Of a stretch of 47,050 bases of DNA, positions 9,157 to 46,327 are shown in pieces. The position numbers and the translations under genes were made by a program. The stretch comes from a virus. Lineage: Duplodnaviria > Heunggongvirae > Uroviricota > Caudoviricetes. The first letter of the stretch is position 1. Each line of letters begins with the position of its first letter. The notes beneath the pieces were generated by a model. That model was not told the DNA's origin, did not search any database, and saw nothing but the letters and a program-made list of their open reading frames with translations. The DNA is taken from the IMG/VR virus record IMGVR_UViG_3300045051_000179, positions 1-47,050 of that record. One strand, 5' to 3'.

Positions 9157-9426
9157 TCATTCTCCCTTGTGCTCGAAGGTCTTCCGGTGCAGGACGATGT
9201 TCTTGCCCTTGACGGTGATGGTAATTTCCTCGGCAGGAACAACGAGTTCCTCGGTTATCATCTTGGAGGTCTGGCTAGTGTAGATATCTACGGTCTTCCA
9301 GATGCCATTAGATTGGGTGGCCGGTGCTTCTGCCCTGCCTGCTCTCTTACCCTCACCATATCCGATATACAGAGCGACAAAGACGAGGATTACAAGAGCA
9401 ATCGCCGTCACTACATCAGAATTCAT
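9157..9426 (-). CDS. single-pass membrane protein
   Basis: N-terminal TM segment; start refined. Confidence 0.7.
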   Translation of the reverse strand: MNSDVVTAIALVILVFVALYIGYGEGKRAGRAEAPATQSNGIWKTVDIYTSQTSKMITEELVVPAEEITITVKGKNIVLHRKTFEHKGE

Positions 9427-9605
9427 TCCACTCCCCTCAGTTGCTCGACGGTCCATTCACCACGAATGCTACGACCAGTTTCGACCTTGCCACAGGTCGA
9501 GCATCGATACCCGACAATCGTTCTTGGCCCGGTGATAGACTCATAGACGCTGACATTCACGATTGACCACGTGTGTTTATGTCGATTACCAAACGGCCAC
9601 TTCAT
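9423..9605 (-). CDS. small zinc-ribbon-like protein
   Basis: HKHTW...CSTCG. Confidence 0.65.
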   Translation of the reverse strand: MKWPFGNRHKHTWSIVNVSVYESITGPRTIVGYRCSTCGKVETGRSIRGEWTVEQLRGVE

Positions 9606-35630: not shown

Positions 35631-35710
35631 AGATTCGAAACTAACTTAGATGGACTAAGAGCAGCCTCCAAATCTGCCAGTAAGGGGTTCGATTCCTCTC
35701 GTCTCTGCCA
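35631..35710 (+). tRNA. tRNA-Trp(CCA), degenerate
   Basis: loop CTCCAAA, T-arm, CCA; acceptor mismatches. Confidence 0.6.
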
Positions 35711-35711
35711 T

Positions 35712-35787
35712 AGCAGTCTTCATGGTAGGTACCCGACTGGCCTCATAAGCCAAGTCTTTAGCGGCTCAATTCCGCAGGCTGCAACCA
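35712..35787 (+). tRNA. tRNA-Met(CAT), atypical
   Basis: loop CTCATAA; 1:72 mismatch; CCA. Confidence 0.65.
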
Positions 35788-35789
35788 AA

Positions 35790-36090
35790 TACTACGGATT
35801 GTTGCAACTCTCCGTATGAGTCAAGGGTCGCGAGGTACGCTCTATATGGGCTACCTAGAAGCAGGTGGATGAAAGAGAACAGGCCACTAAGGTGACTCAA
35901 CCTCGTCCTTGATAACCAAATACTTTACTCCGGCCCGATAAACGGAAGTCAGCAACGGGGTAGCCGGAACAAATCGAGTGAGTGACTCTAACAGGCTCGA
36001 TCAATCAAACGCTGGGGACACGAACGGTTCCCTTTCATAGATGTCGCGCATCTATGGCTCAACTAAAGAAAGGATGGTGTTCCATATGAC
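35790..36090 (+). ncRNA. about 300-nt structured RNA of unknown class
   Basis: multiple stems and crossing pairings GAGTCA/TGACTC and GGAACA/TGTTCC. Confidence 0.45.
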
Positions 36091-36114
36091 TATACTCTAG
36101 AAAGGAGGTAGTCA

Positions 36115-42089: not shown

Positions 42090-42166
42090 GCTTTTCTATC
42101 CCAATCGGTAGAGGAACAGCCCTCAGAAGGCTGCAAGTGTGAGTCCGAATCTCACGGAGAGCACCA
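42090..42166 (+). tRNA. tRNA-Leu(CAG), short variable loop
   Basis: loop CTCAGAA, CCA. Confidence 0.85.
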
Positions 42167-42168
42167 AT

Positions 42169-42253
42169 CGAGATATGCTGGAATTGGCATACAGGCTAGT
42201 CTTAGAAACTAGTGCCGAAAGGATTGAGAGTTCGACTCTCTCTATCTCGACCA
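42169..42253 (+). tRNA. tRNA-Leu(TAG)
   Basis: loop CTTAGAA, long variable arm, CCA. Confidence 0.9.
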
Positions 42254-42305
42254 TCCGCACGCTGTTGAAGTCAGATAGCAGTTAAAGTCTGCTGGTGTGG
42301 GTCAT

Positions 42306-42381
42306 ACCGTTGTAGCACAGTTGGAAGTGCGTCGGCTTGCCAAGTCGAAGGTCCGGGGTTCGAGACCCCGTAGCGGTACCA
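42306..42381 (+). tRNA. tRNA-Gly(GCC)
   Basis: loop TTGCCAA, CCA. Confidence 0.85.
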
Positions 42382-42383
42382 AT

Positions 42384-42456
42384 GCCTAGTGGTGTAACGT
42401 TAGCACGCCGTCCTGATAAGACGGAAGTTCCTTGTTCGACTCAGGACTGGGTACCA
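42384..42456 (+). tRNA. tRNA-Ile(GAT)
   Basis: loop CTGATAA; irregular T-arm. Confidence 0.75.
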
Positions 42457-42457
42457 A

Positions 42458-42537
42458 CCTTATTGAGCACGGCTAGGTATGCGTGCAGGTCCCTGATAAG
42501 GACAAGGCCGAAGGTTCAATTCCTTCAATAAGGACCA
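42458..42537 (+). tRNA. tRNA-Ile(GAT), second copy
   Basis: loop CTGATAA, CCA. Confidence 0.75.
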
Positions 42538-42538
42538 A

Positions 42539-42615
42539 GCAGATGTAGTGTAGTGGTCTAACATCTCTCCCTGTCAAGGAGATGATCGCCAGTTCGAATC
42601 TGGTCATCCGCGCCA
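42539..42615 (+). tRNA. tRNA-Asp(GTC)
   Basis: G73, CCA. Confidence 0.88.
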
Positions 42616-42617
42616 AT

Positions 42618-42693
42618 GGCTTCGAAGACAAATGGCATAGTTGTTCGATTGTCAATCGAAAGGGAGTGGGTTCAATCCCCATCGGAGCCGCCA
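42618..42693 (+). tRNA. tRNA-Asp(GTC), second copy
   Basis: G73, CCA. Confidence 0.85.
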
Positions 42694-42694
42694 A

Positions 42695-42768
42695 GGTCTT
42701 GTAGTTTAACGGAAGAACAAGGGCGTTGTATCCCCTTGGTCACAGTTCAATTCTGTGTGGGACCTCCA
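42695..42768 (+). tRNA. tRNA-Thr(TGT)
   Basis: loop GTTGTAT, U73, CCA. Confidence 0.75.
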
Positions 42769-42844
42769 ACCGCTGATTAGTGTAACGGACAGCACGCCAG
42801 TCTTTGAAACTGGAAGAACGGTTCGATTCCGGTAGGTGGCATCA
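42769..42844 (+). tRNA. tRNA-Gln(TTG), weak acceptor, no CCA
   Basis: CCAGT-CTTTGAA-ACTGG; TTCGATT. Confidence 0.6.
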
Positions 42845-43225
42845 AACGGTCCCGTATCGCTATCCTGCAAGATAGGCGATCCTTCATTGCAGTGGAGTGT
42901 GGACTCCGGAATCGTCACCGGAGATTATATGCTAGATAGTCTGATGCGGATGCATCCGCTTAGGCCGGTCATGAACGGGCGTAGACTATCGAACAAAACG
43001 TCTACGGTTCCCATGACGTAAAAGATTCCGGGGGAATAAGCGTACAGTATCGCACTGCAAGGTGACCTGATACTCAGGCTATGCTCGACATAGACGATCT
43101 AAAGAGAGTGCGCAAAACGCAGCAAACGTGGTCGGAGGACCCGAATAAGTCCGTAACCCTTGTGGTAGACGGTGAAGGTGCGAACGGGCGGAAGCCTTTG
43201 GGTGAAAGTGGCTGCGAAATAAGGG
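42845..43225 (+). ncRNA. about 380-nt pseudoknotted RNA of unknown class
   Basis: long-range TTGCAGTG/CACTGCAA; crossing GATAGTCT/AGACTATC. Confidence 0.5.
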
Positions 43226-43226
43226 C

Positions 43227-43255
43227 TTGACAAATGGTTGGCAACCTGCTACAAT
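43227..43255 (+). promoter_or_regulatory. sigma70-type promoter
   Basis: TTGACA-17-TACAAT. Confidence 0.85.
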
Positions 43256-43261
43256 ACGGCT

Positions 43262-43820
43262 AAGCCGATGAGGACACTCGAACCTCGACGGTACGCCCAA
43301 GGGGACCTTTCTGCTGACTCCCTAGTCGCGTCAGGTTGGGTGATCTGGAAACGGAATCACGTCGGAACTCTCCTAACCGACAAATCATTAACCGGTCGTA
43401 GGAGTGCTCAATCACTTCCCTTGGCAATTGAGAAGGCCATGGAGAACCCGACGCTGGCTTTGCGGAACCAGCAACTATATGTAAAGGGTGTCGTGCATGC
43501 TCCTGACAAGTGTGCTAGTCAGAGTCAGGTCTGATGATACGCGACTTCAGGAGCCACCCTGAAACTATATGATGGTAGGGCTGTGGAGCAACCCGAGTAT
43601 GACGCGATTACTTCTCGGGAACAGCGGTGAAGCAGCCCGTCGCGCTTTTCATTAGTCCGTTTGTGGGCGGTAACCGGACGTTAAACCGAAACCCTCGTTA
43701 TATAATGCGTCGATGTGGAAGTTACCTGCTAGTCACAGGACGACTCTCCCGGCTATCCCTTGACTAAGGATGGTGTTCCGACCGGCCCAGCAGAGGTCGG
43801 CTACGGAAGCGCAGTAACAA
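43262..43820 (+). ncRNA. about 560-nt multi-pseudoknot RNA of unknown class
   Basis: own promoter; many stems and crossing pairings; no RBS-led ORF. Confidence 0.6.
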
Positions 43821-43821
43821 T

Positions 43822-43897
43822 GCTTCTTTGGCTGAGTTGGTCAAAGCGGGGGCCTGAAAAACCTCATATCTCAGTTCGAATCTGAGAGGGAGCACCA
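43822..43897 (+). tRNA. tRNA-Phe(GAA)
   Basis: loop CTGAAAA, CCA. Confidence 0.85.
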
Positions 43898-43899
43898 AT

Positions 43900-43977
43900 G
43901 CTCGTCTATTCCCAATAGGCAGAGGAAAGCGTCTTAAACACGTTTCAGTCTGAGTTCGAATCTCAGGACGAGTACCA
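43900..43977 (+). tRNA. tRNA-Leu(TAA), short variable loop
   Basis: loop CTTAAAC, CCA. Confidence 0.85.
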
Positions 43978-43978
43978 T

Positions 43979-44055
43979 AGATCGCTGGCGCAACGGTTAG
44001 CGCTCTTGTCTTATAAACAAGCGGTTTCTGAGTTCGAGTCTCAGGCGATCTACCA
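43979..44055 (+). tRNA. tRNA-Ile(TAT)
   Basis: loop CT-TAT-AA, perfect acceptor, A73, CCA. Confidence 0.88.
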
Positions 44056-44056
44056 A

Positions 44057-44131
44057 CGTTTCTTCGCCAAGAGGAAAGGCAGTGGTTTCATAAGCCACTA
44101 TGCGATGGTTCGAATCCATCAGAAACGACCA
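44057..44131 (+). tRNA. tRNA-Met(CAT)
   Basis: loop TTCATAA, CCA. Confidence 0.85.
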
Positions 44132-44138
44132 TGCGGGA

Positions 44139-44185
44139 GGAGAGCCAATCCCTCTCCTTCTGACAATTGCTCTGGATTGGAGAGT
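44139..44185 (+). ncRNA. kissing-hairpin pair
   Basis: loops CCAATCC and GGATTGG are exact complements. Confidence 0.5.
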
Positions 44186-44200
44186 ACAATGTCTAGATAT

Positions 44201-44275
44201 GGGCCTCTAGCACGACGGTCGTGCATGCGTCTTTTAAACGTTAGGGTCGGAGTTCAAGTCTCCGGGGGCTCTCCA
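44201..44275 (+). tRNA. tRNA-Lys(TTT)
   Basis: loop CTTTTAA, CCA. Confidence 0.8.
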
Positions 44276-44276
44276 A

Positions 44277-44351
44277 TGCAATGTAGTTCAGCGATAGAAC
44301 TGGTGGCCGTTAACCATCGTGTCGTAGGTTTGAATCCTACCGTTGCAGCCA
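44277..44351 (+). tRNA. tRNA-Asn(GTT)
   Basis: G73, CCA. Confidence 0.8.
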
Positions 44352-44352
44352 A

Positions 44353-44427
44353 GGGTCATTAGCACAATGGTGGTGCAGAAGGTTCTTACCCTTCCGGATA
44401 TCGGTTCGAGCCCGATATGACTCTCCA
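44353..44427 (+). tRNA. tRNA-Lys(CTT)
   Basis: loop TTCTTAC, CCA. Confidence 0.85.
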
Positions 44428-44428
44428 T

Positions 44429-44504
44429 ACTCGCATCGACTAATTGTTAAGTCTACTCGCTGTTAACGAGGAAGATACAGGTTAGAATCCTGTGACGAGT
44501 GCCA
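44429..44504 (+). tRNA. tRNA-Asn(GTT), second copy
   Basis: loop CTGTTAA; acceptor mismatches. Confidence 0.75.
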
Positions 44505-44505
44505 T

Positions 44506-44580
44506 AGGCAGATGACTACTGGTCGTCTAACTAGTCCCTTAAACTAGGATATCGGGGTTCGATTCCCCGTCTGCTTACCA
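44506..44580 (+). tRNA. tRNA-Lys(CTT), second copy
   Basis: loop CCCTTAA, CCA. Confidence 0.75.
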
Positions 44581-44776
44581 TAGGGCGATGTTGTAGTCCT
44601 GATAGTTAACACCGCGCGGCGCTTGGCATCAGGTCACATTCTAGCCCTCTCCAACGAAGTTCCGTACCCCAGTGGACATCTTGCTTGCATGAGTGTTCGC
44701 GGCTTGCAACAGGGAGGCGTCCTGTTGACTTCGATCAAATCTTCTTCGGGGCAAGAAGTAAACAATGCTCCACCAT

Positions 44777-44851
44777 TCCCCTCTCGTCTAACGGTAGGAT
44801 TCGTGGCCTTGAACCATGTAGATGCTAGTTCGAATCTAGCATGGGGAACCA
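44777..44851 (+). tRNA. tRNA-Gln(TTG)
   Basis: loop CCTTGAA, CCA. Confidence 0.82.
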
Positions 44852-45430
44852 ACATCATTTAGTTTCACATCGAGAAGCGCCCGTGATCAAGGGAAGCGCA
44901 GGGTCACGATCCTGCAATGATGAACATATTGTCGAGCCGTGATAGTAAAGGCCAAATATCCTGATCCATGCGCATGGCGTCAGGTGAAGCCCGGATCATA
45001 TAGGCGGCTTCCGGACCCCGTAACCGTGAACTATATAATTGGTCGTGAGCGGCGGTAACTGCTCTACTGGCATCCTTACCGGGATGGAGGAAGACGCGAC
45101 TCTGGATCAGGCATAACCAGAGACTATATAATGGCCTAGGTTAGCGCCTAGGTCAGGGATGTGCCGGAAATCTCCTACTGTGAGGCGGGAGAACAACGGG
45201 ACTACGGCAAGAGTTGACGCAAGAGGATATCGACCTGAACTGGGGGACAACGAACCAGCAGGCACGGGGACTTTTGCGGAAGGCATGCCAGTGCTGAACT
45301 TGTGTCGGGAGACTAACGTAGGGTTGTGGGTTAACTAGTTCACTGCTATTGACCAGCCACACGCGCACATATGGGTAGGCAACCCCATCGTCCAACTCAT
45401 TAGCACTGAGTCGAAATAGGCTAATACCAT
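44852..45430 (+). ncRNA. about 580-nt structured RNA of unknown class
   Basis: dense hairpins and a pseudoknot between the last tRNA and the terminator; no RBS-led ORF. Confidence 0.5.
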
Positions 45431-45432
45431 GG

Positions 45433-45463
45433 AACCCTTCTCCTAACCGGAGAGGGGTTTTTT
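45433..45463 (+). terminator. intrinsic terminator closing the RNA island
   Basis: AACCCTTCTCC-TAACC-GGAGAGGGGTT followed by a T run. Confidence 0.88.
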
Positions 45464-45665: not shown

Positions 45666-46327
45666 TCGAAGAACCCAAGCATGCCAATAGTCGTACCGCA
45701 AAGCGTGCGACTGAGGGCTCTCGAAAGAACTCTGGTGTAGCCCGATCAGATCGTATTGTCACGAATCGTGGTCGTGGTCGCCCGCCCGGAGTAAAGAACA
45801 AGCCAAAGTCTCTAGTCCCGACTGAATTGGCTAATGAACTCCTCCTGAAAATGGAGTCGATGGTTCCTCCGGAGCACTTCAAATACCTCAAGGGTGTCAT
45901 CAAAGACGGCAAGGCCGTATCGACCAAGCAAGAACTCGATACCCTGATTCTCCTGCTCAATAGGAATCTCTGGCCAGCCCTTGTTGCTGAGGGCCGACTG
46001 ACCAAGAGTTCCAAGGTCGAAGATATCGTCGATGTCGATCCTGACAAGGAAGACAAAGAAGATGATGAAAAGGGTCCAGTATTTCGTAAGGATGTAACTG
46101 AGCGCTTGAAGGTTCTCAATTCCCTCCTTACCCTCCGACATCAGATTGAAAAGAACGAGGTCAGCCCGGATGACGGCAGCCAGCCGCTCCTAACGATCTT
46201 CGCAAAGCGAGGCGTTTCTAGTCGCCTTGGAATTCTCATTGGTGAAGTAGAGCCGCCAAAGGCGCTCCCTGCTGTCACAGAAGAAAGAGTCGCGCATGAC
46301 GGCCAAATTGTCATTGACCCAGAGTGA
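45662..46327 (+). CDS. putative terminase small subunit / AT-hook DNA-binding protein
   Basis: RGRGRPPGVKNKPK; helical; directly upstream of and overlapping terL. Confidence 0.6.
   Translation: MIEEPKHANSRTAKRATEGSRKNSGVARSDRIVTNRGRGRPPGVKNKPKSLVPTELANELLLKMESMVPPEHFKYLKGVIKDGKAVSTKQELDTLILLLNRNLWPALVAEGRLTKSSKVEDIVDVDPDKEDKEDDEKGPVFRKDVTERLKVLNSLLTLRHQIEKNEVSPDDGSQPLLTIFAKRGVSSRLGILIGEVEPPKALPAVTEERVAHDGQIVIDPE

Follow-up and report, generated by a model that had tools for sequence, protein, structure and literature searches.

What kind of RNA fills a non-coding stretch among the tRNA genes of this Caudoviricetes genome? The sequence analysed here (the window) is a stretch of 47,050 nt at the start of a complete virus genome of 111,050 bp with direct terminal repeats (IMG/VR record IMGVR_UViG_3300045051_000179). 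A gap of 980 nt separates the end of tRNA-Gln(UUG) at 42841 from the start of tRNA-Phe(GAA) at 43822, and the studied interval is its second half. An initial annotation, made from the sequence alone, had read this interval as a single promoter-driven RNA of about 560 nt, held together by interlocking pseudoknots and belonging to GOLLD, ROOL or a new class of very large ornate RNAs. Its landmarks proved correct. A TG-extended sigma-70-type promoter, TTGACA-17-TACAAT, is present at 43227..43255 on the + strand with 11 of 12 matches, the TG lying before the -10 element, and the interval is bounded by tRNA-Phe(GAA) (43822..43897, +), which heads ten downstream tRNAs. No credible ORF is present, as had been proposed: the longest encodes 98 aa, starts at 43238 within the promoter spacer and has no PHROG match, and the indels among the homologues described below are not multiples of three.

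ARAGORN detects 47 tRNA genes in the window, all of them + strand genes located from 35.5 to 44.9 kb, and the gene for the large subunit of the terminase begins at 46296. There is no close cultured phage, the best terminase identity being 36%. Seven near-consensus sigma-70-type promoters (10-12 of 12 matches), located between 35087 and 43255 and oriented like the tRNAs, split the island into sub-operons. The promoter at 40443 precedes both a reduced class A RNase P RNA (40480-40817) and, directly 3' of it, a weakly matching YrlA-like RNA (40815-40931, 28.4 bits). The RNase P RNA reaches 93.9 bits in the window, just below the Rfam cut-off, and 133-141 bits in eight relatives. Given that the island holds both an RNase P RNA and a Y-RNA-like RNA, non-tRNA stable RNAs appear to be a regular feature of it. 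Genes for Ro/TROVE (PF05731), RtcB (PF01139) and RnpA were searched for in the complete phage genome, and none was found. Further stretches of the island also deserve mention. A block of about 330 nt located 3' of the last tRNA (45117-45463) is conserved, with nhmmer E-values between 1e-20 and 1e-51 in seven relatives, and is closed by a strong intrinsic terminator at 45431-45463; at the equivalent place, the contig L078 gives a weak match to manA-RNA (28.6 bits, E 0.0016). Two conserved non-tRNA blocks in the gap between tRNA-Pro and tRNA-Ser (35680-35796 and 36061-36305) are common to L002, L004, L005, L009, L010 and L013. The segment 42458-42534 scores 46.7 bits with the Rfam tRNA model and is not called as a tRNA by ARAGORN.

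The ornate-RNA proposal drew on ten complementary motif pairs, all of which (10/10) are found where the annotation had placed them. Their abundance is close to what chance provides: the minimum free energy of 43262-43821 has a z-score of -1.63, with 7 of 100 shuffles folding as well, the minus strand of the same segment gives -0.62, and 51 perfect complementary 6-mer pairs were counted versus 38.5 +/- 7.9 in shuffles. Partition-function probabilities are high for CUCCUGA/UCAGGAG (0.99) and CUCCUA/UAGGAG (0.78) alone, the other three crossing pairings having values of 0.01 or less. The annotation had named, among the grounds on which it could fail, folding no better than dinucleotide shuffles combined with a lack of covariation. 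The 560-nt fold is indeed no better than its shuffles; covariation does exist, within the two modules described below.

Starting from a terminase fragment as query, we collected 47 related uncultured viral contigs, to which metagenome contigs were added. The order tRNA-Thr(UGU), gap, next tRNA is kept in 13 loci (L002-L010, L013, L016, L020 and L021), the next tRNA being Phe in all of them except L016, where it is Met. The gap before that tRNA measures 169-331 nt in the relatives versus 980 nt in the window. By nhmmer, the only conserved parts of the window's gap are 43251-43431 and 43647-43706, and neither the 385 nt upstream of the promoter nor the 265 nt at 43382-43646 has a homologue in 111 loci. 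Structural conservation is confined to two modules of about 110-125 nt each, which we call A (43256..43381) and B (43706..43813), and not to a single 560-nt RNA. Homologue collection yielded 15 distinct sequences for module A and seven, including the window's, for module B. The part of the earlier proposal that saw a conserved, structured, non-coding RNA adjacent to phage tRNAs and downstream of a strong promoter is thus borne out at the level of these modules.

Between A and B, the window carries three segments of its own, X1-X3, and a displaced block, H. X1 (43382..43473, +) folds like random sequence (z = +0.15) and has no homologue in the 111 loci. It carries UAGGAG and CCCUUGG, the complements of the P4 loop and of the junction motif of module A, and the CUCCUA/UAGGAG helix between the A-P4 loop and X1 reaches a probability of 0.78-0.92 in silico. 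This pairing could represent a lineage-specific alternative fold, or it could be a coincidence. An ACUAUAU linker (43474..43480, +) leads to X2 (43481..43563, +), a window-specific long hairpin in which AGGGUG/CACCCU surrounds GCUCCUGA/UCAGGAGC. X2 is the only one of the three that folds unusually well (dG -34.6 kcal/mol, z = -4.06; minus strand z -2.68), and it too has no homologue in the 111 loci. After a second ACUAUAU linker (43564..43570, +) comes X3 (43571..43646, +), a window-specific hairpin GGGCUG/CAGCCC around CCCGAG/CUCGGG with a fold z of 0.04 and no homologue, whose end bears a weak terminator-like site (43624-43643) followed by GCUUUUCAUU. Finally, the H block (43647..43705, +) consists of a hairpin GUCCG...CGGAC, GUUAAACC and an A/U-rich segment with TATAAT at its end, with nhmmer matches in L002, L003 and L010. 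It lies directly after tRNA-Thr(UGU) and 5' of module A in L002, L004-L007, L009 and L010, and is displaced in the window to a place 5' of module B. We considered H as a repeated phage promoter and rejected this, the motif occurring once in the 111-kb genome.

The linkers themselves form a recurrent element. ACTAHAT occurs 23 times in the window versus 9.8 expected, and 11 of these copies are on the + strand within 40817-45129, where they stand between the non-tRNA modules and never within tRNAs. In L004, L005, L069 and L016, module A is likewise followed by ACUAAAU, ACUAUAU or ACUACAU. Given the likeness of ACUAHAU to a tRNA 3' end (ACCA) plus UAU, it may be a shared processing signal.

These comparisons bear directly on the ornate-RNA reading. 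A promoter and dense complementary segments are present, as it demands, and X1 complements both conserved single-stranded motifs of module A, one of these helices having the high probability given above. However, the middle 265 nt and all long-range partners are missing from every relative, the whole gap fits within 169-331 nt there, and the ACUAUAU linkers divide the stretch into units. Of the quoted stems, GTCGG/CCGAC (A-P4) and CTGAC/GTCAG (the variable A-P2) belong to helices that relatives keep, while CTCCTGA/TCAGGAG, GGGCTG/CAGCCC and CCCGAG/CTCGGG are local hairpins of window-specific sequence. The crossing pairings tie conserved motifs to segments that no relative has and are therefore not part of the conserved fold. 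The requested kind of Rfam search adds to this picture. Using cmscan with all 4227 families of Rfam 15, at the gathering score on the window and at E <= 10 on 42780-43900, the latter region returned the two flanking tRNAs and no match for A, B, X or H, so that the interval does not belong to GOLLD, ROOL, OLE, raiA or the group I and II intron families. Taken together, the comparison with the relatives largely refutes the reading as one ornate RNA, GOLLD- or ROOL-like or of a new large class, and we now consider it very improbable.

Module A (126 nt, +; 94.2 bits with R1, a covariance model of the module built from ten sequences) comprises a 5' tail, a hairpin P1, a G-rich junction and three further hairpins, P2, P3 and P4. 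The tail reads ACGGCUAAG, or AAGCCUGUAC in a variant that we call A'. P1 (43265..43291, +) pairs CCG-a-UGAGG with CCUCG-a-CGG around a 9-nt loop containing a near-invariant ACUCGA, and its stem letters differ in nearly all homologues with the pairing kept. The junction motif (43295..43304, +) is GCCCAAGGGG, invariant in type-A members, and GAUGGUGGAGG in variant A'. P2 (43305..43336, +) is a variable hairpin including CUGAC/GUCAG, often capped in relatives by GAAA or UUCG, and a UGGG at 43337-43340 links it to P3. The latter (43340..43360, +) is a GUGAU-CUG-GAAA-CGG-(bulged A)-AUCAC hairpin with a GNRA tetraloop. P4 (43361..43381, +) consists of GUCGG/CCGAC and an 11-nt pyrimidine-rich loop, AACUCUCCUAA; across the family, this loop has 11-13 nt, is pyrimidine-rich and ends in an invariant CCUA.

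Covariation in module A is extensive. In the main alignment, which was fitted to the R1 model, 89.4% of the cells are paired versus 68.6% in shuffles and about 45% with slid partners, and 19 of the 28 pairs change on both sides versus 5-9 in the slid controls. An unfitted analysis with MAFFT and RNAalifold still found 14 of 21 pairs to be compensatory. By helix, double-sided changes affect seven of seven pairs in P2 (helices 3 and 4), 6/8 in P3 (helix 5) and 3/5 in P4 (helix 6). The sequence thus forms a family defined by four helices with compensatory changes and by the invariant loop motifs ACUCGA, GAAA and CCUA. The window copy by itself folds no better than shuffles (MFE z -0.26), and its own MFE structure lacks P3 and P4; the support for the predicted structure of module A is comparative and not thermodynamic.

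The junction motif has several candidate partners, namely the 5' tail (GGC/GCC), the UGGG at 43337-43340 and the P4 loop. The tail:GCC, GCCCA:UGGGU and AGGGG:P4-loop pairings are all either invariant or explained by base composition, and GCCCA/UGGGU and GGC/GCC, the two possible closing helices, are both invariant and could not form at the same time. An AGGGG:CUCCU pseudoknot of 4-6 bp could form in all members (93% paired). We rejected it as a proven pairing, given that it has no double changes and that its length is not greater than with the loops shuffled (5.3 versus 4.4). Likewise, the CUCCUAACCG common to the P4 loop and the terminator at 45431-45463 is not kept in relatives and was set aside as a coincidence.

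Homologues of module A were sought with a three-motif pattern scan of IMG/VR, metagenomes and the genomes of 185,579 species of bacteria and archaea, one per species, followed by scoring with R1. Together with the contigs collected above, this gave the 15 distinct sequences, one strong copy per contig, with 57-109 bits, the copy in L024 being marginal at 21.5 bits. All true matches of the pattern belong to the same phage clade: the species genomes produced 24 pattern matches, none of which (0/24) passed R1. An A'-type pattern found at 81 IMG/VR loci turned out to fall in unrelated coding sequence. Module A always lies within a tRNA array, on the tRNA strand, with a short A/U-rich stretch 5' of it and no terminator of its own. 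The next tRNA is tRNA-Phe in 13 of the 15 and another one in L016 and L024. In L002, L009, L010, L012, L013 and L020, only 5-6 nt separate A from tRNA-Phe, and in L078, A starts 5 nt 3' of tRNA-Thr, apparently likewise in L012 as judged by eye. With such spacing to the flanking tRNAs there is no room for a promoter, and A is bounded like a member of the array, promoterless in those genomes. Its borders thus sit a few nucleotides from tRNAs or linkers on the same strand, as would be expected of an RNA excised from a tRNA precursor. By eye, two other kinds of element were noticed between A and the following tRNA. In L069, the stretch 9235-9444 between A and tRNA-Phe shows a T-arm-like hairpin followed by a D-arm-like one, the layout of a permuted, Y-RNA-like tRNA relative; in L016 (4583-4674) and L078 (1143-1236, minus strand), a third module, 'C', unrelated to B, lies between A and the next tRNA.

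The constancy of this position is also what makes a cis-acting role the main rival explanation. A structured RNA also heads a long untranslated unit in the case of the put RNA of phage HK022 and of the antitermination elements of rrn leaders. Module A, with or without B, might work only in the nascent transcript, either by rendering RNA polymerase resistant to termination across the untranslated tRNA block in the style of put and rrn leaders, or by protecting the 5' end or tuning RNase P cleavage at tRNA-Phe. In agreement with such a role, A is the last structured element before tRNA-Phe, or nearly so, in 13 of the 15 phages, it begins at the promoter in the window, directly downstream as in put and rrn leaders, and it has no terminator of its own. 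On the other hand, promoter-proximal placement is not a conserved trait of A: in L078, tRNA-Thr lies 5 nt upstream, at the very place of the -35 element, which is found in the window only and not in relatives. Module B, the third module or as much as 440 nt can fit between A and the tRNA with A still kept, and the next tRNA is not Phe in L016 and L024. In addition, four covarying helices and three invariant loops exceed what put and boxA elements are known to need, A being larger and more complex than these. A cis-acting leader is therefore a possible but unlikely account of module A.

Module B (43706..43813, +) is a 108-nt RNA with a four-way junction, in which three arms branch from an outer helix that bears a conserved CGA bulge; the loop of the middle arm has 7-9 nt. 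In relatives it appears as an element of about 120 nt in the stretch from A to tRNA-Phe of L004-L008 and L065. A model built from these six, with the window left out (R2), matches the window at 43696-43819 with 22 bits (E 5.5e-05), its only extra match in 465 kb. With these 22 bits the window copy is a weak member, and its MFE is no better than in shuffles (z -0.25); it keeps 27 of the 31 model pairs. Covariation over the seven sequences is moderate, 88.4% of cells being paired versus 78.9% and 10 of 29 pairs changing on both sides, with the structure derived from the same sequences. The outer helix with the CGA bulge and the three arms, placed directly 5' of tRNA-Phe, are the features by which B, too, is recognized as a family. 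We also tried B as a tRNA and rejected this: the likeness is limited to cloverleaf topology, and tRNA models give no call.

Modules A, B and X were also compared with known RNAs. No tRNA is called on any of them by ARAGORN or by RF00005 (E <= 10, both strands), and no tmRNA was found by ARAGORN in the window or the whole 111-kb genome, nor by Rfam. The YrlA model, which does detect 40815-40931, has no match on A or B at E <= 10. An Rfam search of the corresponding stretch of L004 (2965-3255) gave chance-level matches only, and a GP20-b match encountered in the Rfam searches (17 bits, E 0.23) contains non-canonical pairs and was dismissed as chance. Comparison of the gap with phage GenBank by blastn found no match, an exact 26-mer of module A has no occurrence in IMG/VR, and no part of the gap is repeated within the 111-kb genome. 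A full-text literature search returned no description of module A or B RNAs. A and B are thus families that match no Rfam entry; for IMG/VR, a separate collection of 8,495 candidate RNAs without names has been published (PMC10690425).

Given that tRNA arrays shuffle and decay, the interval might consist of functionless tRNA or tRNA-like remnants and neutral spacer, an idea to which the cloverleaf topology of B and the lineage specificity of the X modules lend some colour. Against this, compensatory changes keep the helices of both modules in contigs that share 62-79% identity with the window in their terminase fragments, the loops are invariant, and tRNA models match neither strand, so we regard decay as very unlikely.

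A different possibility is suggested by the phage RNase P RNA, which lies about 2.4 kb upstream of module A. A could be a trans-acting cofactor of phage tRNA maturation, for example by replacing the P12-P14 specificity part that is missing from the slim RNase P RNA. Every A-bearing contig that reaches far enough also has this RNase P RNA, and we take A-P3 (CUG-GAAA-CGG) and the P4 loop, by eye, to recall P13 and L14 of the E. coli M1 RNA. However, the Rfam RNase P model (RF00010) has no local match on module A, R1 run with filters off on five bacterial RNase P genes gave alignments of 2-6 bits, no better than background, and the co-occurrence of A with the RNase P RNA comes from a single clade. 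We accordingly give the cofactor reading very little weight. The broader view, in which the phage encodes a system of tRNA maturation that has A, and perhaps also B, as RNA subunits acting in trans, seems to us just as improbable. If A did supply the specificity-domain function to the slim RNase P RNA, the two would constitute a naturally split ribozyme.

The explanation that we prefer, with a probability of roughly 60%, is that the tRNA-Phe sub-operon begins with a non-tRNA head, the interval studied here, made up of a chain of RNA modules that fold independently, of which A and B are excised as stable RNAs. For both modules, conservation, covariation, single copy, strand and place among the tRNAs are observed; excision and stability we infer from position, given that A lies 5-6 nt from tRNAs in relatives where a promoter is excluded, which leads us to regard both modules as small stable RNAs excised from the tRNA precursor. 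The enzymes that mature tRNAs would release A and B as discrete RNAs of about 110-125 nt: RNase P, cleaving where the next tRNA begins, would set the 3' end of the preceding module, and an endonuclease may cut within the A/U-rich linkers of the ACUAHAU type. Once freed, A and B might act in trans through their invariant loops, which would contact a partner, protein or RNA, connected with tRNA or translation. In module A, the candidate contact loops are ACUCGA (P1), the GAAA tetraloop (P3) and the pyrimidine-rich CUCUCCUA (P4), and we consider the conserved loops, above all the last one, the obvious candidates for partner contact. X1-X3, the displaced H block and the strong promoter right before A would be lineage-specific gains of this phage. 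Some points speak against this explanation. The predicted transcription start, at about 43262, probably falls within the conserved 5' tail of module A and would drop its ACGGCU; the families are small, with 15 (A) and seven (B) members from one clade; and the near-constant link of A to tRNA-Phe fits a cis role too.

Precedents for such an arrangement exist. The tRNA cluster of phage T4 encodes species 1 and 2 (rnaC/rnaD), and, like functional spacers of bacterial tRNA operons such as 3'ETS-leuZ, these are non-tRNA RNAs that are co-transcribed with tRNAs and released separately; to our knowledge, the function of the T4 species has remained obscure. A and B resemble species 1/2 and 3'ETS-leuZ, as far as descriptions allow comparison, in being bounded by tRNA-processing sites. 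Unlike the T4 species, they have covarying architectures of their own and come from an uncultured clade with an RNase P RNA. Regulatory sRNAs with C/U-rich loops, such as the actinobacterial 6C RNA and RsaE/RoxS, provide another comparison: module A resembles them in that its stable P4 hairpin exposes a pyrimidine-rich, invariant loop, for which purine tracts of the Shine-Dalgarno type are possible pairing partners. It differs from them in having no Rfam match and three further conserved elements, and its internal G-rich AAGGGG could occupy the P4 loop. GOLLD and ROOL are likewise phage-associated, often near tRNA genes and non-coding. Nevertheless, they comprise several hundred nucleotides of conserved multi-domain structure, whereas here only 126 + 108 nt are conserved and the rest is lineage-specific. 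Finally, YrlA and the bacterial Y-RNA-like RNAs (Chen et al. 2014, PMC4201824) are modular, tRNA-associated small RNAs, as are A and B. The closing stem of B, with its conserved bulge GUCGAUG, recalls the GNCGAA(N)G motif of YrlA, and its top is cloverleaf-like. In contrast to YrlA, A and B have no T-arm or D-arm and do not match the YrlA model at E <= 10, and their phage encodes neither Ro/TROVE nor RtcB.

Non-tRNA RNAs of phage tRNA clusters have been recognized since T4, and we know of none with a function. Modules A and B provide clear comparative support and defined boundaries for RNAs of this kind. The models R1 and R2, together with the coordinates, turn them into defined objects for experiment, correcting the call of a giant ornate RNA. 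That their clade encodes an RNase P RNA of its own as well as a Y-RNA-like RNA suggests that these phages carry a set of stable RNAs aimed at tRNA and translation biology.
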